From contig JBDGSL010000002.1 of NCBI GenBank assembly GCA_042217555.1, forward strand, positions 1 through 64,000: a DNA stretch of 64,000 nucleotides, in the 5' to 3' direction. The stretch's first letter is position 1, and the number at the start of each line of letters is the position of its first letter. Both the position numbers and the translations under genes were made by a program. The DNA comes from Candidatus Nanohalobium sp. (lineage in GTDB: Archaea > Nanohalarchaeota > Nanosalinia > Nanosalinales > Nanosalinaceae). The notes below the pieces were generated by a model. That model saw nothing but the letters and a program-made list of their open reading frames with translations, was not told where the DNA came from and did not search any database. Below are positions 3,934-34,748 of this stretch, one piece after another.

Positions 3934-4041
3934 TCACTACTGAGATAATACTGAGTGAAACAGTATAATTACAAAATTGTTTTAATTTTAGTAGGGTTAA
4001 ATACGAAGAGTTTTAAATTTTAGTAGGCTTAAAGTTTAAGC

Positions 4042-5277
4042 ATGGAGTATGTTAGAAGGGATCTTGAGGATCAGATCCGAAATTATCTGGATTCGCCTGA
4101 GATTATTGCAGTAGTAGGGCCGAGACAGGCCGGAAAAACTACTTTGTTCAAAAAATTTCAGGAGGACCTGGAGAACTCCAGATACATCAGTTTTGAGGAC
4201 AGGGATGTTCTATCTGTCTTTGAGGAAGATGAGAAGGAGTTTGCAGAACTCTACCTGGAAGGCAGTGACTATTTACTGATAGATGAGTTCCAATACGCTG
4301 AGGAAGGAGGCAGAAAACTGAAGTACCTATACGATGAATACCCTGGGAAAATCATGATTACAGGCTCATCAGCGGCCGAGATGACTATAGAAGGCCTGAA
4401 ACATCTTACAGGAAGAGTGCTGAAGTTCAACATTTATCCCTTCAGCTTCAGGGAATTCCTGAGATACAGGGATGAAGATCTATATGAACTGTTCAGAACC
4501 AGAGAAGATAAAATCCCGGACTGGATACAAGGAGAAGAAGACCTGGATATAACCGATACAACCCTTTCCCGGCTCGAAAAGTTACGTAAAGAATACTCTA
4601 TCTACGGCGGATATCCACGAGTCGTACTCGCAGATTCCGAGGAAGAGAAACAGAAAGTCCTGGAAAACATCGTTGAAACATACCTGATCAGGGAGATAGG
4701 AGACGTTATGGATATATCAGATGACAGAGAAATGAAGGACTTAATGAGGGTTCTGGCACTCCAGATGGGAGAAAAAACAAGGTACAACACAGTCTCACAG
4801 AAAACAGGGATAAATCACAACAAACTAAAGGACAGGCTGAACGTCCTGGAACACACCTTTGTCCTGGAACAGGTAAGACCTTTCTACACCAATAAACAGA
4901 AGGAAATAACCAAGCAACCAAAAATTTACTTCTACGACAACGGCTTCAGAAACACTTTGATCAACAACTTCAACAAACTCGAACTAAGGAAGGATCAAGG
5001 CGAGCTGAACGAAAACTTCTTCTTCACACAGGCCCGTACAGAACTCAAGTACTGGAGAACCAAAAGCAGAGCCGAAGTCGACTTCATCAAAGAAAGCTCA
5101 GATATAAACGCCTACGAAATAAAGACAACACCTAAAACCACAAGATCAATGAGAAGCTTCCAGAAAAAATACTCTCCAAAAAACATGATACTGATGAACC
5201 AGGAAAAACTCCAGAAGAACCAAGACGAAGTATTCATACCACTAATATTCTCACAGAAAGTAGCAGAAATACAATGA
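4042..5277 (+). CDS. AAA+ ATPase with DUF4143 / PD-(D/E)xK domain, COG1373-like
   Basis: GPRQAGKTT, LIDEFQY, TGSS, GGYP, PKIYFYDNG, EVDFI...EIK. Confidence 0.9.
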   Translation: MEYVRRDLEDQIRNYLDSPEIIAVVGPRQAGKTTLFKKFQEDLENSRYISFEDRDVLSVFEEDEKEFAELYLEGSDYLLIDEFQYAEEGGRKLKYLYDEYPGKIMITGSSAAEMTIEGLKHLTGRVLKFNIYPFSFREFLRYRDEDLYELFRTREDKIPDWIQGEEDLDITDTTLSRLEKLRKEYSIYGGYPRVVLADSEEEKQKVLENIVETYLIREIGDVMDISDDREMKDLMRVLALQMGEKTRYNTVSQKTGINHNKLKDRLNVLEHTFVLEQVRPFYTNKQKEITKQPKIYFYDNGFRNTLINNFNKLELRKDQGELNENFFFTQARTELKYWRTKSRAEVDFIKESSDINAYEIKTTPKTTRSMRSFQKKYSPKNMILMNQEKLQKNQDEVFIPLIFSQKVAEIQ

Positions 5278-18983: not shown

Positions 18984-19190
18984 ATGGTAGAGGTAAATAT
19001 TGACGACGGCAAGTACGAGGTTCTGGAGGCTCGTGGAAAAGAGAAGGATTTTGACAGTACTGAGGAGTACATCGATCATCTCCTGGGGCAGATTGTTGAG
19101 AAGATCAGGAGGGAGAAGCAGGAGGAAGAGTACTCCGAGGAGGAAGAGGAAGAGGTCAAGGAGAAGCTGAAGGATCTCGGCTACATGTGA
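18984..19190 (+). CDS. Small CopG/RHH-like protein with acidic linker and KLKDLGYM tail
   Basis: ATG at 18984 (track start 18954): MVEVNID...FDSTEEYIDHLL...YSEEEEEEVKEKLKDLGYM. Confidence 0.8.
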   Translation: MVEVNIDDGKYEVLEARGKEKDFDSTEEYIDHLLGQIVEKIRREKQEEEYSEEEEEEVKEKLKDLGYM

Positions 19191-20590
19191 GGAAGATGGA
19201 TCTGATTGTGCTTGGAGTCGACGGGGTTGCACCTGATTACCTGGAAGAGGCGCTGGAGAAGAGGGATATGCCTAACTGGGAAAGGTTGAAGCAGGGAAGT
19301 TTCTACTCCGAGCTGCCGAGCACGGCACCCTCGATTACTGTTCCGGCGTGGCAGTGCATGTTCTCCGGCTACAATCCGGGCAGGTTCGATACGTACCACA
19401 TGAACGTGTTTAATTTCGATGATATGAGCCAGGGGATCGCCAAGTCCTCGAACTTCCGCGGCGACTTCTTCTGGGATAAATCCGATGTAACTGCTTCGCT
19501 TCATTTCGTGCCGGGTACGTCACCACCTTATGAGATCAACGGCTGGATGCGTTCCGGTTTTCCCGGTCCCGGGGCGGATTTATATCCGGATGAGCTTGGA
19601 GAAGAGGTTGAGGAGAAAATTGGAGAGATCGATTCGTATGAGAAGGAACGCAGTGTTGGAGAGTTGATGATGGGTAAGGAGTCGGATGTTTTTATCTCGG
19701 TTGTCAGGATGACGGACAGGGAGTCCCACCACGCTGAGAAAAGATCTGATGTGATTGACACGTACGAGAGAGCGGATGAGTTCCTTGGAAAAGTGCTGGA
19801 TAAGGCGGAGAGGGAAGACGCGAATCTTCTCGTGGTTTCTGACCATGGATTCATGCATGCCGAGAGAAAATTCAATGCATTGAAGTGCCTGGAGGAGAAG
19901 AATCTGCTGGAGTTTTCCGGTGACAGGGAGACTTCAACTCTATACAGGATTGCACAGCCTTTCCTGAAGACACCTCTCAGGATCCCGCTGAAGAAGATGC
20001 ACGAGCTCTATCACGACTTCACGGGCGAGAAGATAAACGATACTGAGGAGAACATCTTGGACGCTTTAGAGCCTTCTTCTAAGGTCCTCCCATCGTGGAA
20101 GCCGGTAGGCCGCGAGCTAGGGTTGAAGATCAACACGGAGGATATGCCTAATGGAGAAGTCTCTGAGGAAGAGAAAGAACAGATACTTCAGGAGCTTGAG
20201 GATGAGCTGGAGAATCTTGAGGGCTCTGGCAAGAAGGTCGTGGAGAAGATCTGGCGCGGCGAAGAACTCTACGAGGAATCCGAGAACATGCCGGACCTGG
20301 TCTTCAGGACTACAGAGGATTTCATACCGGATGTACTGACTTCGGACATGATGTTCGTCAACACTTCTTCCTTCACGCACGACGTGAACGGTATCTTCTT
20401 CGCGCATGGACCAGGTATCGATGAAGATGCAGAAGAGAATCTTGAAATTTTCGATGTGGCGCCGCTGATCTACGCGCTTCTCGGCGAGGATATACCGGAT
20501 GACCTGGATGCGGAGCTTCCGGAGAAACTTCTGGATGAGAGTATCGAGGTCGAGTACGTTTCCGACGAGTTGAAGGGCCTGGATTTCTAG
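19187..20590 (+). CDS. Nucleotide pyrophosphatase/phosphodiesterase-like protein (COG3379-like; likely start 19196)
   Basis: VLGVDG, PSITVPAW..MFSG, DRESH, SDHGF, DVAPLI. Confidence 0.9.
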   Translation: MRKMDLIVLGVDGVAPDYLEEALEKRDMPNWERLKQGSFYSELPSTAPSITVPAWQCMFSGYNPGRFDTYHMNVFNFDDMSQGIAKSSNFRGDFFWDKSDVTASLHFVPGTSPPYEINGWMRSGFPGPGADLYPDELGEEVEEKIGEIDSYEKERSVGELMMGKESDVFISVVRMTDRESHHAEKRSDVIDTYERADEFLGKVLDKAEREDANLLVVSDHGFMHAERKFNALKCLEEKNLLEFSGDRETSTLYRIAQPFLKTPLRIPLKKMHELYHDFTGEKINDTEENILDALEPSSKVLPSWKPVGRELGLKINTEDMPNGEVSEEEKEQILQELEDELENLEGSGKKVVEKIWRGEELYEESENMPDLVFRTTEDFIPDVLTSDMMFVNTSSFTHDVNGIFFAHGPGIDEDAEENLEIFDVAPLIYALLGEDIPDDLDAELPEKLLDESIEVEYVSDELKGLDF

Positions 20591-23021: not shown

Positions 23022-23357
23022 TTAACTTTTCTTTACTTCTTTTATATTCTCTTTCAGTTCGGGGAGTGTTTGGTTTATAGTGTTCCAGATTATGTCTAGG
23101 TCTACTCCGAAGTACTGGTGAATTAGTATGTCTCTCATTCCTGCTGCTCCTTCCCATATTGATTCTCTATTGTCTTCTTTGAAGTCTTCAGGCAGTTTTT
23201 TTATCGCCTCACCAACTATTTCCAGCCGTCTAATAACCGCATCCTGTGTTTTAACATCTTGTTTAAATTCCTCTTTTGAAGTATTTTCTGTATAATTTTC
23301 GATCCTCTCTATTGCTTCTAGAACATGTTCAAGAAGTGTTTCCGTATCTTTGCTCAT
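23022..23357 (-). CDS. HEPN (DUF86/HepT-like) ribonuclease toxin
   Basis: QDAVIRRLEIVGEA, GMRDILIHQYFGVD (Rx4HxY). Confidence 0.93.
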   Translation of the reverse strand: MSKDTETLLEHVLEAIERIENYTENTSKEEFKQDVKTQDAVIRRLEIVGEAIKKLPEDFKEDNRESIWEGAAGMRDILIHQYFGVDLDIIWNTINQTLPELKENIKEVKKS

Positions 23358-26989: not shown

Positions 26990-27721
26990 ATGAGTCAAAG
27001 CATCTCTCGGAGAGAGGCCCAGCTTATCGATGAGGTCAAGGATAGAGAGATGCTGTTTTTCCAGCCTAGAGATGTTCAGAGGTTTCTCGATATAAGCGAT
27101 AGAGCCAGCTACAACCTTCTCTCAAGGATGAAGAATAAAGAACTGGTAGAAAACGTCGAATCAGGGAAATACATCTTGAAAGAAACGCTGGATTCACGTG
27201 ATGTATACGAACTGGCTTCTAACATCGTCGATTACTCGTATCTAGGATTTTTCAGTGCTTTACACTTCCATGATTTGACTGAACAAGTTCCTCAGAAGGT
27301 TCAGGTTGCTGTCACGAAGAGGAAAGATGATCTGGAACTTCAGGGCAGAGAAATACAGTTCATAAAAATAGACAAGGATCACTTCTTCGGCTACAGCAAG
27401 TATGGAAACACTGTGGCATCGACTCCGGAGAAAACCGTTATAGATTCATTGAGGCTTCCAGGCAAAACAGGCGACCTATCAAACATCCTGAGGGTGGACT
27501 ACAGCCAATTAGACATACAACTGCTAGTTGATTACTGTGAGAGAACTGGTAGTTCGGCCGTAGCATCGAGACTGGGTATTATACTCGATAGAAAAGAAAT
27601 CGATTTTAACTGGGAGAAGATCAAAGACTTGATCACTCACTACACCTGTCTTGACCCTCAGAAACCTAGAGAAAACCCTGTCAGTAGATGGAAGGTTTAC
27701 GAAAACCGTGATATCTCATGA
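26990..27721 (+). CDS. Type IV TA AbiEi-like antitoxin / transcription regulator
   Basis: N-terminal wHTH, YLGFFSALHFHDLTEQVP, FFGY, PEKTVID. Confidence 0.88.
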   Translation: MSQSISRREAQLIDEVKDREMLFFQPRDVQRFLDISDRASYNLLSRMKNKELVENVESGKYILKETLDSRDVYELASNIVDYSYLGFFSALHFHDLTEQVPQKVQVAVTKRKDDLELQGREIQFIKIDKDHFFGYSKYGNTVASTPEKTVIDSLRLPGKTGDLSNILRVDYSQLDIQLLVDYCERTGSSAVASRLGIILDRKEIDFNWEKIKDLITHYTCLDPQKPRENPVSRWKVYENRDIS

Positions 27722-28629
27722 TTGATAGAAAACAACTTAGAGATCTACACGACCAGAATCTGCCTCTGCATGTCCTGGAGCAGGACTACATACAGGCATT
27801 ATTTCTTCAAAAACTATATAGTCAAACTGAGGGCCTCGTGTTCAAAGGAGGAACGTTCCTCAAACACGCACATGGCTTAGACAGGTTCTCGGAAGACCTG
27901 GATTTCACACAGAGAGAAGGGTTTGAGAACATAGTTCCTGTGCTGAAAGAGGCGGCAGAGAGCTTATCTGACTACGGTGTTGAAGCAGAGGTAGACAGTA
28001 TCGAAGAGAATGATGTTTCCGCTTCATGCAGATTAATCTATCGGGGCCCGCTGTATGATGGTTCTCAGCACTCCAGGGGCAGCATAGAGATAGACGTATC
28101 GAAAAGAGAAGACGTACTGACAGAGCCAGAATGGATCAGACTTTTCTTCGAATACCCGGAGATCAGGGTAGTTAATGCACTAGGACTTAGCAGGGAAGAA
28201 CTGCTGGCCGAAAAACTCAGGGCGCTCGCTACAAGAGATAAGGCCCGTGACCTCTACGACTGCTGGTACCTCATAAACCAGGGGATAGAACCCAGAAACG
28301 AACTTTTCAAGCAGAAAATGGAGGTAGTAGGAGAAGGGGCTGTGCTCAATATATCGGTAACGGAGGAAAAGTGGGAAAACGACCTGAATATCTTTTTGGA
28401 AAATCCGCCTGCTCTAGACACTGTTAGAGAACAGTTAGTGTCTGAACTAGAGCAGAAGGATTTCAAGATAGTGGAGCTAGAGTCGGGTATTAAGCTTATT
28501 CCTGTCGCCGACAATTCTGTTGAAGGTTTGAAGGAAGCTATGAACGGTGCTGAGGACATAGATATAGAGAACTTGAGTGAAGAGATTGATGAGGCAGCCA
28601 GAGAAGAGTTGAAAGAGGAGTTCCAGTAG
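27718..28629 (+). CDS. AbiEii nucleotidyltransferase toxin with a fused antitoxin-like C-terminal tail
   Basis: EQDY, LVFKGGT, RFSEDLDF, AEKLRAL, RDLYD; extra tail KIVELESGIKLIPV... Confidence 0.9.
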   Translation: MIDRKQLRDLHDQNLPLHVLEQDYIQALFLQKLYSQTEGLVFKGGTFLKHAHGLDRFSEDLDFTQREGFENIVPVLKEAAESLSDYGVEAEVDSIEENDVSASCRLIYRGPLYDGSQHSRGSIEIDVSKREDVLTEPEWIRLFFEYPEIRVVNALGLSREELLAEKLRALATRDKARDLYDCWYLINQGIEPRNELFKQKMEVVGEGAVLNISVTEEKWENDLNIFLENPPALDTVREQLVSELEQKDFKIVELESGIKLIPVADNSVEGLKEAMNGAEDIDIENLSEEIDEAAREELKEEFQ

Positions 28630-28631
28630 AT

Positions 28632-28997
28632 ATGGTCTATGTGGACACTGATTTCTTTGTCGCCCTGACTAAGGAAGAAGACTGGCTGCAGAAGAACGCC
28701 TTAGAATTATATGAAGAACACAGAGGGAGTATTCAAACTTCTCTACCGACGTTTATTGAACTCTGTTTTCTGGCACAGGACTATGATTGGGAGTTGGAAA
28801 AAGTTGTTACAAATATCCTGGAAATAGCAAAAATAGATTTTGATGAAAAGGTCGTTTATCAAGCTGTAGAATACATAGATCAGGGTCTAAATGTTCTGGA
28901 TTCCTTCCAACTTGCTAAATCGGAAGGAGAGATAATAAGTTCTGACAAGGAATTTGATGAAACGGGAGTAAATAGAATCAAGCTTGAAAGCTCTTGA
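28632..28997 (+). CDS. vapC: PIN-domain VapC toxin
   Basis: YVDTDFFVAL, TFIE, LDSFQLA, IISSDKEFD. Confidence 0.9.
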   Translation: MVYVDTDFFVALTKEEDWLQKNALELYEEHRGSIQTSLPTFIELCFLAQDYDWELEKVVTNILEIAKIDFDEKVVYQAVEYIDQGLNVLDSFQLAKSEGEIISSDKEFDETGVNRIKLESS

Positions 28998-29135
28998 TTG
29001 AGGTATTTTGCTCTTATTTTGAATCCTTATAGCGGAAAGCAAGAGTTCTAAAACTCCGTCCCTTTAGGGCGGAGATACAGAACGATCTAACACATAAAAA
29101 AGTATAAGGATATATGTTAGAATATAAAAAAATCC

Positions 29136-30410
<1,275 letters not shown>

Positions 30411-30553
30411 CCTACTGCTAATTCAGACTCCTTGAAACCTTTACGAAGCTCCACCGTTTACGGTGGAGAGGATGTCACGCTTGGCTGTTTCTAAGTGGAG
30501 AGGCTGATTAGACATCAGTAAAGTACTTAAGTACTTAGTCACATAGCTATAGT

Positions 30554-30823
30554 ATGGGCACGATTAAGGTATCAGTTCCTGATGAGAATGAGGAAAGGTT
30601 TAGAAAGGCTGCTATGAATGTTTTCGGCCATAAAAGAGGCTCTATTAGTAAAGCTGCTGAGGAAGCAATGGAAGAATGGGCTGATAAGAATCTAGAGGAA
30701 GGCTTAGATTTATCAGGAGGTCTCGGAGATTTCCTCTCTGAGAAATCAGCAGATACTGATAAATCAGCTGTTGAACTTCAGGAGGAACTGGGAGACGCCT
30801 ATGAAGAACAAGTACTTAATTGA
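30554..30823 (+). CDS. RHH antitoxin (VapB-like)
   Basis: TIKVSVPDE.EERFR...RGSISKAAEEAMEEW; overlaps the PIN gene. Confidence 0.8.
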   Translation: MGTIKVSVPDENEERFRKAAMNVFGHKRGSISKAAEEAMEEWADKNLEEGLDLSGGLGDFLSEKSADTDKSAVELQEELGDAYEEQVLN

Positions 30824-31217
30824 CTCCAATATATTTCTCCACCTTTACCTAGAACAAGATGAGGAATCTGTTTGTAGAACTCTGCTCAACAAACTTGGCT
30901 CAGGAAGAGTTGAGGCTGCAGTTACTCTATTTCACCTTGATGCAGCTGCTATAGTAATGGAAAGAGACGGGCTGACCCAAAAGGAAATAGCAGAGTTCTA
31001 TGCTCGTGTTTACCAAAGTAAAGGGATAGAGATAATGCATCTGGGTGTGGTTGGCAGGCTCAATGGCTTAGCGGACCGAAATCACTCCGGAATTGATGAT
31101 AGTCTGATAGAACAAGCCTTGAAAGACAGAGATTTAGACAGAATCATCACTTACGACACTGATTTTGATGAAGAATTAAGAATAACGCCTGAAGAAATTC
31201 TCCAGAGTGGAAAATAA
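30801..31217 (+). CDS. vapC: PIN-domain VapC toxin
   Basis: ATG at 30801: YLIDSNIF, IDDSL, IITYDTDFD. Confidence 0.88.
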   Translation: MKNKYLIDSNIFLHLYLEQDEESVCRTLLNKLGSGRVEAAVTLFHLDAAAIVMERDGLTQKEIAEFYARVYQSKGIEIMHLGVVGRLNGLADRNHSGIDDSLIEQALKDRDLDRIITYDTDFDEELRITPEEILQSGK

Positions 31218-31326
31218 CTCTCCCTTTTATTAACCATCATGCATAACTTATGCATATTCCAAAGTGAAGTTCAATGCGAAATTCACAGAATTTCTGTATT
31301 AACAGAAAAACGGAGGTTTTTCGATA

Positions 31327-32244
31327 ATGCCAGAAGCACCTGTAACACGAGAAGAAATTGAGAACGCGCCTATAAAGGCAAAAATCAGAGCAGGAGAAGA
31401 AGTCGTCAAAAGAGCGCTTGAAGAATACGACCCGGAGAATACAGTCATCGGTTTCACCGGGGGAAAAGACTCCACGCTGACCGCATGGCTCGTCAAGAGA
31501 GTATGTGAGGAACATGACATTGAGAAACCAAGGTTCATGTTCGTGGATCACGGCCAGCACTTCGACGAACTGGAAGACTATGTCGAGAGACTCGCCGATG
31601 ACTGGGGGTTCGAAGTGCTTACGGCCAGAAACGATGACCTCATCGAGAAAGCAGATCAACCAGGTGAAACAGTTCCCGTAGCAGAGCTAAACGACACTAA
31701 CCAAGAAGAAGCAGCCAGAATCGATGAAGATCTAGAAGAAGTTCCGTGGCTGATGGACACAGAATCCGGAAATCACCTTCTCAAGACAGTACCGATGAAC
31801 GAGCTCCTACAGGAAGAAGGCATCGAGCTAGTTATCAACGGAGTAAGATGGGACGAACACGAAAGCCGTGGTGATGAAGACTTTTACTCCCCGAGGGACG
31901 AACCGGAACACCTCAGAGTACACCCTATCCTGCAGCTAGATGAAAGAGATGTCTGGGATGTCTCATGGTTCCACATGGTTCCTGACATCACAGGAGTAGA
32001 CATCGAAGAATACCCAGAAGATGAATCGGATCTTCCAGAAGGACTATCCAAAGACGATGTACCTATCAGTCCTAAGTACTGGGCAGGATTCAGAAGCCTG
32101 GGATCAGAAGTATCAACCGATAAGTCCGACGAGATACCGGCCTGGCTACAGGACGTAGAGAACACAAAGGAGAGAGCGGGTAGAGCTCAGAACAAGGATG
32201 ATGAGGAGATCATGAACCGTTTGAGAGAACTCGGGTATATGTAG
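31327..32244 (+). CDS. PAPS reductase-family PP-loop protein, CysD-like, with RLRELGYM tail
   Basis: FTGGKDS, GVRWDE..SR, RVHPIL, GFRSLG, ERAGR; no C-terminal ECG(L/I)H motif. Confidence 0.85.
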   Translation: MPEAPVTREEIENAPIKAKIRAGEEVVKRALEEYDPENTVIGFTGGKDSTLTAWLVKRVCEEHDIEKPRFMFVDHGQHFDELEDYVERLADDWGFEVLTARNDDLIEKADQPGETVPVAELNDTNQEEAARIDEDLEEVPWLMDTESGNHLLKTVPMNELLQEEGIELVINGVRWDEHESRGDEDFYSPRDEPEHLRVHPILQLDERDVWDVSWFHMVPDITGVDIEEYPEDESDLPEGLSKDDVPISPKYWAGFRSLGSEVSTDKSDEIPAWLQDVENTKERAGRAQNKDDEEIMNRLRELGYM

Positions 32245-32281
32245 AGTTTTAAGCTCTTTAAAGCTTTCTTAGTCCTTGTTA

Positions 32282-33106
32282 CTATTCTTTCTTATCTCTT
32301 GTATGTTTTCCTCAAGTTCTGGGAGTGTATCTTTGACTTTATTCCATACTATGTCCAGATCTACTCCGAAGTACTGATGTATCAGTATATCTCTCATGCC
32401 TGCTGCGCCTTCCCAGAGGTCTTCCCTGTTCTCTTCTCTGAAGTCTTCTGGCAGTTTCTTTATCTTCTTGTTGAGAAGACTCTGTCCTCAAATCTGTGAT
32501 TTAAGGTTAGGGATGAATCGACAGATTTTAAAGTTCCACGGTCTATAACCATAGTATTCACGGCAGTTTGGTTAGGGCTTACTGCTACTCGAAACTCCTT
32601 TGGAGTTTCTGTGTCACATCGTTCTCCAAGAACGATGCTCGAACAGATTCCTGTAAGGAATCTGTGGTTCGCAGAAAATCCGCTGGATTTTCGAGGAATC
32701 AACAAACAGCAATCCTGAACTCAAAGGTAAGCCAAATGTTTCCATTTCGGAAACGGATGGTGTAGTGAGTTGCGTGGAACAACCACTGAGCGAATAAGGA
32801 AACCGTCTTTGACGGTTAAGATATGGGAACGGGTTTCCCCTAATTCAGACTTCCTCAAAGCGTAAGTTCCGAGATGACGATATGACTTAGACAAGTATCG
32901 TGGAAAGAAGTTCCGTAAGGAATCTTCCGCTCGGAAGCCCCTTCCAAATCTTCTGATTTGGTAACGGGTCATTTCACTGCTTCTCCGACTATTTCGAGTC
33001 TTCTTATTACGGCGTCCTGTGTTTTGACATCTGACTTAAACTCTTCTCGAGAGATGTCTTCTGTATACTCCTCTATCATTAGAAGCGTTTCGCTGTCTTT
33101 CGTCAT
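32282..33106 (-). pseudogene. Second HEPN (DUF86) toxin, split by a 514-bp insertion
   Basis: MTKDSETLL...IRRLEIVGEA (33106-32978) and IKKLPEDF...GMRDILIHQYFGVD...* (32463-32282) rejoin in frame. It also has a short in-frame deletion relative to paralog 23022. Confidence 0.93.
32464..32977 (+). mobile_element. ORF-less IS200/IS605-type element with omega-RNA-like scaffold and hairpin array
   Basis: Inserted 3' of TTTAT (32459-32463), ends TTCAC, no target duplication; homologous to the tnpB right end. Confidence 0.9.
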
Positions 33107-33396
33107 ATTTCCACTGCTTCCTCTTCAACCCTTTTCCTGATGTTGGGGTGCACAGAATTGTACGTCAGAACATCTACATCCTTGCCGAGAGAGTTTTCCA
33201 GTTCCTTTCTCAGCCTGGAGATATCGACGAGGGTTTTCTCCCCCTCGAACTCCACTACGAGATCCACATCGCTTTCCTCATCCTGCTCTCCGCGGGCGTA
33301 AGAGCCGAACAGCTCTGCCCGAGATACATCGTGGCGCCTCAGTATAGGCCTGACTCTGCTACGCAACTCCTCTAACTCAAGTTTTTCATCTGGCAT
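33103..33396 (-). CDS. MNT antitoxin, paralog of 23354
   Basis: LFGSYARGEQDEESDVDLVVE. Confidence 0.93.
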   Translation of the reverse strand: MPDEKLELEELRSRVRPILRRHDVSRAELFGSYARGEQDEESDVDLVVEFEGEKTLVDISRLRKELENSLGKDVDVLTYNSVHPNIRKRVEEEAVEI

Positions 33397-33429
33397 AATT
33401 TCTGTTTAGACCTCGAAGGTTTAATTCAT

Positions 33430-33555
33430 TTAGGTGTTGTTCAATTTCTGATCTGCCATCATGTTGAGAAGATCGTCCATCGACTCGACGTCTTTATCCT
33501 CTTTCATCTTCTCCAGTTTCCGGTACGTTTCCTCATCTATATCTAAGTCTATCAT
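33430..33555 (-). CDS. 41-aa RHH/antitoxin-like peptide, possibly a remnant
   Basis: Manual translation MIDLDIDEETYRKLEKMKEDKDVESMDDLLNMM; same pattern as the N-terminus of the 34098 antitoxin. Confidence 0.5.
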   Translation of the reverse strand: MIDLDIDEETYRKLEKMKEDKDVESMDDLLNMMADQKLNNT

Positions 33556-33588
33556 GTTGTTTGCCTCTGTCCAAAACCCTTTCGCTTC

Positions 33589-33700
33589 ATGCCTACGGAG
33601 AAAATCGATGAAGATGGGAAGCTGTTTATTCCGGAGAGAGTCCGACAGGGGTTCGGCGAAGAGTTCAGTATAGTTGAGCTTGAAGGCAGCATAAGTTTAT
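33589..33700 (+). pseudogene. Truncated AbrB/MazE-type antitoxin N-terminus
   Basis: IDEDGKLFIPERVRQGFGEEFSIVELEGSI, after which the ORF runs antisense into vapC. Confidence 0.65.
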
Positions 33701-33706
33701 TCTCCG

Positions 33707-34105
33707 TTATTCTAGTTTTTCTACTTTTTCTTTATCTTTCAGATGTTTATCTCCGGTTATTACTTTCAGATTTTTCTCTCTTGCTGTGGCTAGTATGATG
33801 GCGTCCATTAAGCCGAAATTCGGGAACTTTTCTCTTTCTTCCTGTTTGATTTTTCCGGCTTTGCTGCATATATGAGGGTTCAGCCCTACTAATTCTGTTT
33901 TGGTCTCTACGAAGTTTCTGATTTCTTCCCATCTGTTGTCTGATTTCAGGTTTCCTGATTCGTAGTTGTCGGACATCTCTGCCAGTGAGATTATCGAAGT
34001 ATAGCATTTTTGCCTGGATTCCAGCTTCTGGTATATCTTCTTTCCTTTTTCGCTGCCTATGTAGAACTCTATCCAGGCCCAGGTATCGAGCAGATATTCA
34101 GTCAT
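33707..34105 (-). CDS. vapC: PIN-domain VapC toxin
   Basis: Start at 34105: YLLDTWAWIE, SLAE, GLMDAIILATA, ITGDKHL. Confidence 0.92.
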   Translation of the reverse strand: MTEYLLDTWAWIEFYIGSEKGKKIYQKLESRQKCYTSIISLAEMSDNYESGNLKSDNRWEEIRNFVETKTELVGLNPHICSKAGKIKQEEREKFPNFGLMDAIILATAREKNLKVITGDKHLKDKEKVEKLE

Positions 34106-34307
34106 ACCTGTCAGCTCTGTCATTTCTGTCTCTGATCTCTTCTCTGTCTTCTATCTCCATGGAGCCAAACATCTCCTCTGAAGAAGGAGTCCCCATCCTC
34201 TCTTTGGCTATCTCTTTCAACAGTTCATCGAAAGAACTGGCTCCTTCCTTCTTCTTCAGCTTCTTCACCATGCGATGTGTGCTTTCCGATATAGTAACAG
34301 TAGTCAT
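34098..34307 (-). CDS. VapB-type antitoxin
   Basis: MTTVTISESTHRMVKKLK...SFDELL; overlaps vapC; real start is likely 34307. Confidence 0.85.
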   Translation of the reverse strand: MTTVTISESTHRMVKKLKKKEGASSFDELLKEIAKERMGTPSSEEMFGSMEIEDREEIRDRNDRADRYD

Positions 34308-34380
34308 AACTATTAATTGGTAATTAGTAATTATAACTCTTTGGTCTGAATAACTTGAGCCTTCGTGATAAAAATTAATC

Positions 34381-34748
34381 ATGCCTGTCCGCGCAGTCTT
34401 CCTAGGAACAAACCCGGCTGGGAAAAGTATACGATTGGCTGAAACGTAGAGATGATGTAGGGGTCCTCGTGCTTCTCACGGAGAAATACCAGTTCTCCCT
34501 ATCGAGGACTTGGAGCCGGAGATAGTCATCGCGTCAGGTTTTGAGTACAAAGTTCCGGAAGAGATTATCGTGGTTCCGGAGAAGGGCATCGTCAACCTGC
34601 ATCCGTCCTTCCTGCCGTACAACCGTGGTGCGCATCCGTACATCTGGCCGATCGTCGAGGACACGCCAGCAGGAGTCTCAATCCTGCCTACCTGGAGAGG
34701 GACGGCGAGAAGTACTTCGTGGATGTGGATATCCGAGAAGGAGACTAG
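34381..34748 (+). pseudogene. Sugar formyltransferase pseudogene, paralog of 36189
   Basis: MPVRAVFLGTNPAG, frameshift, ...VNLHPSFLPYNRGAHP...GVSI, then a large internal deletion to LAYLERDGEKYF. Confidence 0.88.

Follow-up and report, generated by a model that had tools for sequence, protein, structure and literature searches.

The window, the whole 64,000-nucleotide stretch of DNA analysed here, contains a hepT toxin gene that is split by 514 bp with no gene of its own; what is this insert, and what does it depend on? Excising 32464-32977 in silico gave an open HepT frame (...IVGEA|IKKLPEDF...), the last bases of the insert are ATTTCAC, up to 32977, and a target duplication is absent. Because the insert starts with GTG AAA on the toxin strand, an alternative junction two codons (6 nt) away was conceivable. 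This shifted junction (GEAVK|KLPE) was disfavoured, and the junction was fixed at 32464/32977, because the intact paralog at 23028-23357 reads GEAIKKLPE and the other copies of the element are all bounded by TTAT| and TCAC|. The precise insertion without duplication claimed in an earlier note on this DNA was thus reproduced, with paralog and other copies in agreement; TTTAT before the insert and TTCAC at its end were confirmed in the sequence and are shared by copies elsewhere. The insert also lacks tnpA and tnpB, as the note had said, and is ORF-less like the other complete copies. The HEPN toxin named there as the host gene was recovered as well, both halves matching the Pfam HepT-like family, and hepT sits downstream of an MntA-type antitoxin gene.

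Table 1. Features of the insert, its host gene and the neighbouring tnpB element, in window positions.
Feature	Position	Strand	Remarks
Whole ORF-less IS200/IS605-derived element (PATE with omega-RNA)	32464..32977	+	514 bp
TTTAT target (transposon-adjacent motif), host DNA	32459..32463	+	
Left end: GAAGAC motif and subterminal hairpin	32464..32519	+	Type of full TnpB-29136-family elements (L047, L073 left ends)
TATA-like TTTTAAA, predicted archaeal promoter	32526..32532	+	About 30-36 nt before leader; putative function
5' leader: GGCAG/CTGC stem with loop, A-rich linker, CAATCC tail	32562..32717	+	Interrupted here by the array
Secondary 112-bp array of four hairpins, CTCGAAA/TTTCGAG inverted ends	32586..32697	+	SMR-like
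Omega-RNA core common to TnpB-29136 family	32723..32861	+	Hairpin-2 loop GTGGAA at 32774-32779
3' three-way-junction domain, closing helix TTCCGAG/CTCGGAA	32867..32936	+	Seen in gene-less copies only
Right end: GAAG motif, hairpin, terminal TTTCAC	32934..32977	+	TTTCAC predicted to pair with loop 32774-32779
Predicted guide (host flank)	32978..32997	+	Predicted to match an empty hepT allele following TTTAT
hepT toxin gene, C-terminal part with RDILIH motif	32269..32463	-	PF01934, E=5.5e-16
hepT toxin gene, N-terminal part, 43 aa	32978..33106	-	PF01934, E=9.9e-9
mntA-type nucleotidyltransferase antitoxin gene	33103..33396	-	PF01909
Intact hepT paralog, stand-in for empty site	23028..23357	-	Reads GEAIKKLPE
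Solo tnpB element, candidate helper nuclease	29031..30478	+	Putative left boundary after CTTAT
tnpB ORF from TTG	29136-30410	+	ATA at 29124 where relatives have ATG
tnpB element's own omega-RNA	30297-30478	+	Loop GTGACA, end TGTCAC

The location of the insert in a toxin gene looks incidental, because other copies sit at gene ends or between genes, and with an intact paralog present the insertion into hepT was probably an accident that the host tolerates. Disruption of a toxin gene is in itself ordinary. No true empty allele of the hepT site was seen among the metagenome contig joints listed, and no orthologous empty site was found in 60 relatives; this hepT is missing from G002, and G001 carries no more than a paralog-like pseudogene. 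Around the insert, toxin-antitoxin genes are densely clustered at window positions 26990-34382 (AbiEi/AbiEii, three PIN genes, MntA-HepT), with a PAPS-reductase gene in their midst.

Three full copies are present in the source genome (contigs C12, C1 and C31), each of the form TTTAT|CT...TCAC| and all with different flanks. The C1 and C31 copies measure 573 bp and 440 bp and lie at unrelated sites, and C45 holds a broken fourth copy in the 1.3-Mb assembly. The C31 copy (G000:C31:about 2400-2580) adjoins a reading frame that we take to be a RelE-like remnant. There is no sign of a very recent burst, since the three copies of this genome are only 74-78% alike. A congener carries a 407-bp copy at a different site.

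A covariance model of the omega-RNA core (R1), as the earlier note had proposed building, retrieved the family well beyond the source genome, where its four matches are the three gene-less copies and tnpB 29136. R1 matched 5 of 70 genomes of the host's order; Methanohalarchaeum, where 150 of 895 candidates were scored, yielded at least 92 matches, and SCG-AAA382B04 yielded 8. With the 3' domain as the model, the family turned up in 4 of 151 genomes from the phylum of Methanohalarchaeum and in 3 of 70 on the host side. The presence of the family in two phyla that share brines suggests horizontal spread.

The complete gene-less copies tallied numbered 48 in four genomes: 3 in the source genome, 1 in the congener, 3 in G075 and 41 in G074 (Methanohalarchaeum), the last tally drawing on loci for 22 of the 92 R1 matches and on 60 regions covering most of the others. 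TTAT preceded all 48 copies (TTTAT in 43, NTTAT in the remaining 5) when tallied with a finder that demanded TTNT; the anchored test, repeated without that demand, gave TTTAT in 52 of 57 left-end windows versus 9.5 in control windows. The 48 copies have 48 distinct 3' flanks, which bears out the earlier proposal of a new guide at each insertion site. Their longest ATG-initiated ORF had a median of 41.5 aa and a maximum of 90, and tblastn gave no match to TnpB upstream of the gene-less copies. Like PATEs, these copies are inserted 3' of a fixed 4-5 nt target without duplication, have subterminal hairpins at both ends and no terminal inverted repeats, and share a conserved terminus (TCAC).

The runs that best matched the window were salt-lake metagenomes, and in two metagenome runs read depth was higher over the element region than over its flanks. 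No public run with RNA data was listed as carrying the element, and viral contigs gave 0 matches to the core and module patterns. A strict core pattern, searched in genome and metagenome contigs, found 15 stretches, of which 13 lie at tnpB and the other 2 at a tnpB tail of 36 codons, and no members of the gene-less family.

From 5' to 3', the element consists of a left-end hairpin, a T-rich TATA-like motif some 32 nt ahead of the leader, the leader itself, a variable region, the core, a three-way junction of 70-85 nt and a right-end hairpin (C/T-TTCAC). Of the anatomy given in the earlier note, the omega-RNA scaffold stood, but two domains confined to gene-less copies, the 5' leader hairpin and the 3' three-way junction, had been missed; the 5' half of the insert and the 70 nt before its right end are conserved domains of the family and not filler. 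The ends of the insert match those of other full elements of the same TnpB family (L041, L047, L073), and a metagenome contig fuses its left end (to 32519) with the tnpB start region (29089). Upstream of the leader, T was found at -33/-32/-31 in 85/89/79% of the 48 copies.

The leader, seen in gene-less copies only, is conserved in sequence, with one-sided changes only in its stem. A cognate-pair test of its possible H-type pseudoknot was not significant (179 of 2000 shuffles, 27 types), and the leader fold is accordingly a predicted one. The hairpin array within it also occurs in the C1 copy and is missing from the G002 and C31 copies, and metagenome variants without it show the joint 32585->32698. 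The first hairpin of the array recurs at a tRNA-like locus (G000:C1:48072), in the left end of the C11 element (C11:15186) and after a gene (C75:50204).

The insert and the right end of the neighbouring tnpB share blocks at 32725/30299, 32756/30333, 32794/30369 and 32840/30418, and GGTTAAGAT occurs at 32814/30392 and at two further window sites. All of the colinear blocks that had been noted earlier are thus in place; the likeness stops at CTAATTCAGAC, and the transposon ends beyond it differ and belong to other types. Hairpins that change in sequence and still pair had also been noted, and in 17 aligned cores a two-sided, compensatory change was found in 8 of 17 predicted pairs. One further covariation test, of helix 1 only, gave 3 of 4 pairs compensatory. 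The folding strength of the insert was z -4.6.

The pseudoknot between the hairpin-2 loop and the last six bases of the element was paired in 164 of 168 cells (28 rows, the 2 incomplete rows of 30 being left out). Watson-Crick pairing holds at its sixth position in 27 of 28 rows (G-C 12, C-G 11, A-U 4). Shuffles averaged 10.6, and 0 of 10000 reached the observed count, a value that overstates the case because these states represent only about four independent lineages. By group, full elements carry C-G at the sixth position, most gene-less copies carry G-C, and this copy and that of the congener carry A-U. In the neighbouring tnpB element, which has a different right end, the loop is changed to match (GTGACA:TGTCAC). 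The insert thus has a scaffold homologous to the RNA of the tnpB 3' end, ending at the transposon right end, and the loop-terminus pseudoknot of an omega-RNA. Rfam gave no family at gathering score for the core scaffold, the leader or the 3' domain; below threshold, HgcC matched the right end of the neighbour (27 bits, threshold 50) and DUF2693-FD matched the 3' module (14 bits, threshold 44.5).

In the 3' junction, 93.7% of cells were paired and 12 of 18 pairs were compensatory, above all 500 shuffles and all slid controls. It was found at none of the tnpB/tnpA element ends among 31 loci scanned, the 4 matches there falling in neighbouring elements, and tnpB was upstream of 0 of 17 further matches to the 3' module. 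The domain appears portable, because it was found beside a different omega-RNA core at L215 (G025:C5:about 28500-28900) and alone with a right end at L216 (G002:C39:1782-1905). Pistol, hammerhead, hatchet and preQ1-I RNAs were considered for the leader and this module and dropped, as their core bases do not fit and Rfam gave no match.

Candidate helper proteins were sought in the same assembly (94% complete), which has four tnpB matches; the cognate core is at 29136 only. R1 matches the insert and the TnpB-29136 family only, with no match at the genome's other tnpB loci (L057, L058, L005). TnpB 29136 retains D201/E339/D380 with RuvC-II VGD (glycine, rearranged type), a type described as predicted active in PMC10691335. 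It may be poorly made, because ATA replaces the ATG of its relatives: it may start at TTG four codons on, or be weakly made. A same-family genome encodes a TnpB 94-95% identical to it, and full elements of the family have mostly TTTAT or NTTAT as target. The transposon ends of the solo tnpB element itself differ in type from those of its 92-94% identical relatives, and a contig in one metagenome run skips window positions 28658-30517.

The single Y1 tnpA of the assembly, on C11, has an open frame, and its element follows TTTAT|CTTCTT, with a start identical to that of the insert and end hairpins of a different type, so that cross-mobilisation of the insert by this TnpA is only a prediction. 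The C11 element (G000:C11:15160-16826) is the only one with both tnpA and tnpB; palindromes are inserted in both of its end hairpins and an assembly gap lies within its tnpB. G000, G074 and G086 each have one stop-free, near-full-length cognate tnpB match beside several to dozens of gene-less copies.

Among TTAT-adjacent sites of the assembly, the one closest to the predicted guide mismatches it at 2 of the first 12 nt and at 6 of 20, and the hepT paralog differs from the guide at 4 of the first 10 positions. With no close TTAT-adjacent target and a mismatched paralog, only an empty hepT allele would be cut via this guide.

In our judgement the insert is probably a copy of a gene-less, IS200/IS605-derived PATE family that carries a TnpB omega-RNA scaffold, is inserted after TTTAT at unrelated sites, and likely depends in trans both on a TnpA for its movement and on a TnpB of the 29136 family. 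The boundaries, the multi-copy spread, the new 3' flank at each site, the covarying core, the pseudoknot and the 3' junction were all computed here, and multiple copies, a fixed target and structural constraint agree with the mobile, ORF-less IS200/IS605 derivative with an omega-RNA scaffold that the earlier note had seen in this insert. In IS200/IS605 elements single strands are excised by TnpA and inserted by it behind the target; the donor site left empty is cut by TnpB, and repair then restores the element (PMC10055086). Here, the TATA-like promoter would give an RNA of roughly 430 nt comprising leader, core, 3' junction, right-end hairpin and about 20 nt of host flank, and this omega-RNA would load TnpB supplied in trans. 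The loaded TnpB would cut TTTAT plus flank, either at the site emptied by TnpA excision or in an empty allele on a sister chromosome, and the element would be regained when the break is repaired from the filled copy. The leader and 3' junction may be adaptations to life without a tnpB mRNA of its own, through end protection, processing or competition for scarce TnpB. Counting against this reading are a 70-nt extra domain that could block TnpB loading, a sixth pseudoknot pair consistently unlike that of full elements, the ATA of TnpB 29136, the other end-hairpin type of the tnpA element, the draft genomes in which no cognate TnpB was found at E<=1e-40, the limited likeness of the three copies, and the failure to see an empty allele of the site.

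The alternative that survives best, though we hold it to be unlikely, is a PATE mobilised by TnpA whose inner structures serve another TnpB lineage, a host protein or the folding of single-stranded DNA in transposition. It would account for the 3' junction lying next to another core in G025 and standing by itself with a right end at G002:C39, for ends swapped among copies, and for hosts without a detected cognate TnpB: none was found at E<=1e-40 in the draft genomes G002, G025 and G107, which hold the element or its 3' module. Against another TnpB lineage, the core matches R1 along with the TnpB-29136 family only. A role at the DNA level is disfavoured by position 4 of the pseudoknot, where a G-U wobble, kept in most rows, fits RNA.

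Next in order, and also unlikely, is a dedicated, horizontally travelling RNA-only parasite, in which the 5' pseudoknot leader and 3' junction would allow maturation without a tnpB mRNA and would outcompete the helper's omega-RNA, so that one TnpB would serve dozens of guides. The two domains might then protect the ends of the RNA or let it process itself, perhaps by cleavage into a tracr-like and a cr-like half.

A decoy or competitor RNA would bind TnpB without directing cutting, its extra domains forming a sponge that damps full IS605 elements or protects the host. The confinement of leader and 3' junction to gene-less copies suits this idea, as do the counts in Methanohalarchaeum, with at least 41 complete gene-less copies against 21 tnpB matches, only one of them near full length and stop-free. 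We nevertheless consider a decoy improbable: the pseudoknot at the terminus, which positions the guide, is conserved with covariation and TTTAT is retained, both of which are expected if the guide is used, and the element would gain nothing in retention from a decoy.

That the insert is what deletion and decay have left of a full tnpB element at this site, with perfect hairpins arising by palindrome homogenisation and no selection, is highly improbable. The core does stem from sequence coding for the C-terminus of TnpB, and small palindromes abound in the genome, but one architecture recurs at 48 sites in two phyla, long-range pairs covary, and two of the domains are absent from full elements. 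The single-copy form of this explanation, which the earlier note had set against its own, fails on the multiple copies at unrelated sites and on the relatives searched, none of which shows a full element at the hepT site. An IStron-like or archaeal intron spliced from hepT mRNA, leaving the toxin intact, is scarcely credible in spite of the precise in-frame position, the high degree of structure (z -4.6) and a minus strand ending in G, because Rfam gave no intron or ribozyme match, the structure lies on the strand antisense to hepT, other copies sit at gene ends or between genes, and the splice rules (a 5' exon ending in U; a bulge-helix-bulge at archaeal junctions) are at odds with a 5' exon ending in A and with minus-strand junctions that are both purine-rich and form no bulge-helix-bulge.

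For a PATE family served in trans by TnpB, the idea of trans-use is not new: Meers et al. 2023 (PMC10055086) state that PATEs often encode omega-RNAs, which are acted on in trans by the TnpB of other elements. The ISGst PATE-like elements of Geobacillus stearothermophilus described there are likewise ORF-less IS200/IS605 elements with left and right ends and omega-RNAs, whereas the family here is archaeal, is tied to a RuvC-II-rearranged TnpB, adds a leader and a 3' junction of its own, shows a distinct pseudoknot pair and spans two phyla. The PATEs of Haloquadratum walsbyi (PMC3119063) similarly have near-terminal palindromes and a conserved terminal oligonucleotide and lack inverted terminal repeats and target duplication; they differ in that their description recognises no omega-RNA. 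Haloquadratum PATEs are invaded by inverted-repeat SMR-A elements of about 110 bp (PMC3119063), much as at 32586-32697 here. The 112-bp array may be of the SMR-A kind (HqIRS42/43/55), to which its size, 7-bp inverted ends and presence/absence would be suited.

The ISDra2 TnpB omega-RNA (PMC10097598) has the same pseudoknot of an upstream hairpin loop with the last bases of the element, and the Halobacterium sot/omega-RNAs (PMC12558985) have it in the same position. Both share the right-end hairpin and flank-derived guide with our family and, in contrast to it, overlap their own tnpB (PMC10097598, PMC12558985, PMC4615843). In H. salinarum, transcription of an RNA derived from a PATE is known (PMC4615843). 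The standalone omega-RNAs of OMEGA systems, as summarised in PMC10691335, are also mobilised and effector-less, with a new guide per site, and have been shown to function in trans when paired with compatible OMEGA effectors, whereas in-trans activity of the family here is a prediction.

No published account of this gene-less family was found in the open literature searched, nor was a natural archaeal family worked out for in-trans PATE omega-RNA use found there. The present analysis adds a family defined across two phyla, with a pseudoknot pair that is specific to lineages and with two domains to which gene-less copies alone lay claim. The family makes a clean test set, with dozens of natural variants, different guides, a compact cognate TnpB of the little-studied RuvC-II-rearranged type and a predicted TTTAT TAM, and the two removable RNA domains specific to gene-less copies add to its value. 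If these domains improve stability, processing or loading, they would show adaptation of a hyperparasite guide RNA and could aid omega-RNA engineering.

Several further loci depart from the common form. At G000:C45:15557-15750, a family left end is followed by a short right-end-like hairpin and then the leader, which looks like a nested or terminal-only element in a broken copy. A 318-bp gene-less element in G074 (L100:1347-1664) has the leader with a core and right end of full-element type and no 3' junction, and is possibly an intermediate or a recombinant. Two other kinds of apparently ORF-less IS605-type elements are present in the source genome (G000:C3:about 32030-32510, C73:about 19150-19700 and C15:about 3960-4370, all on the minus strand), with different inner sequences, ends GGTAGTTGAC and GAAGTCAC, and no R1 match where tested (L054, L056). 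Three contigs of G051 (C5, C73 and C144; L067, L065 and L062) begin with one family-type right end and continue into differing flanks, hinting at a collapsed multi-copy element. The same RNA cassette is found with different left and right end hairpins at L187, L190, L194 and L199 (G086) and at L089, L091 and L165, suggesting end swapping between IS605 families.
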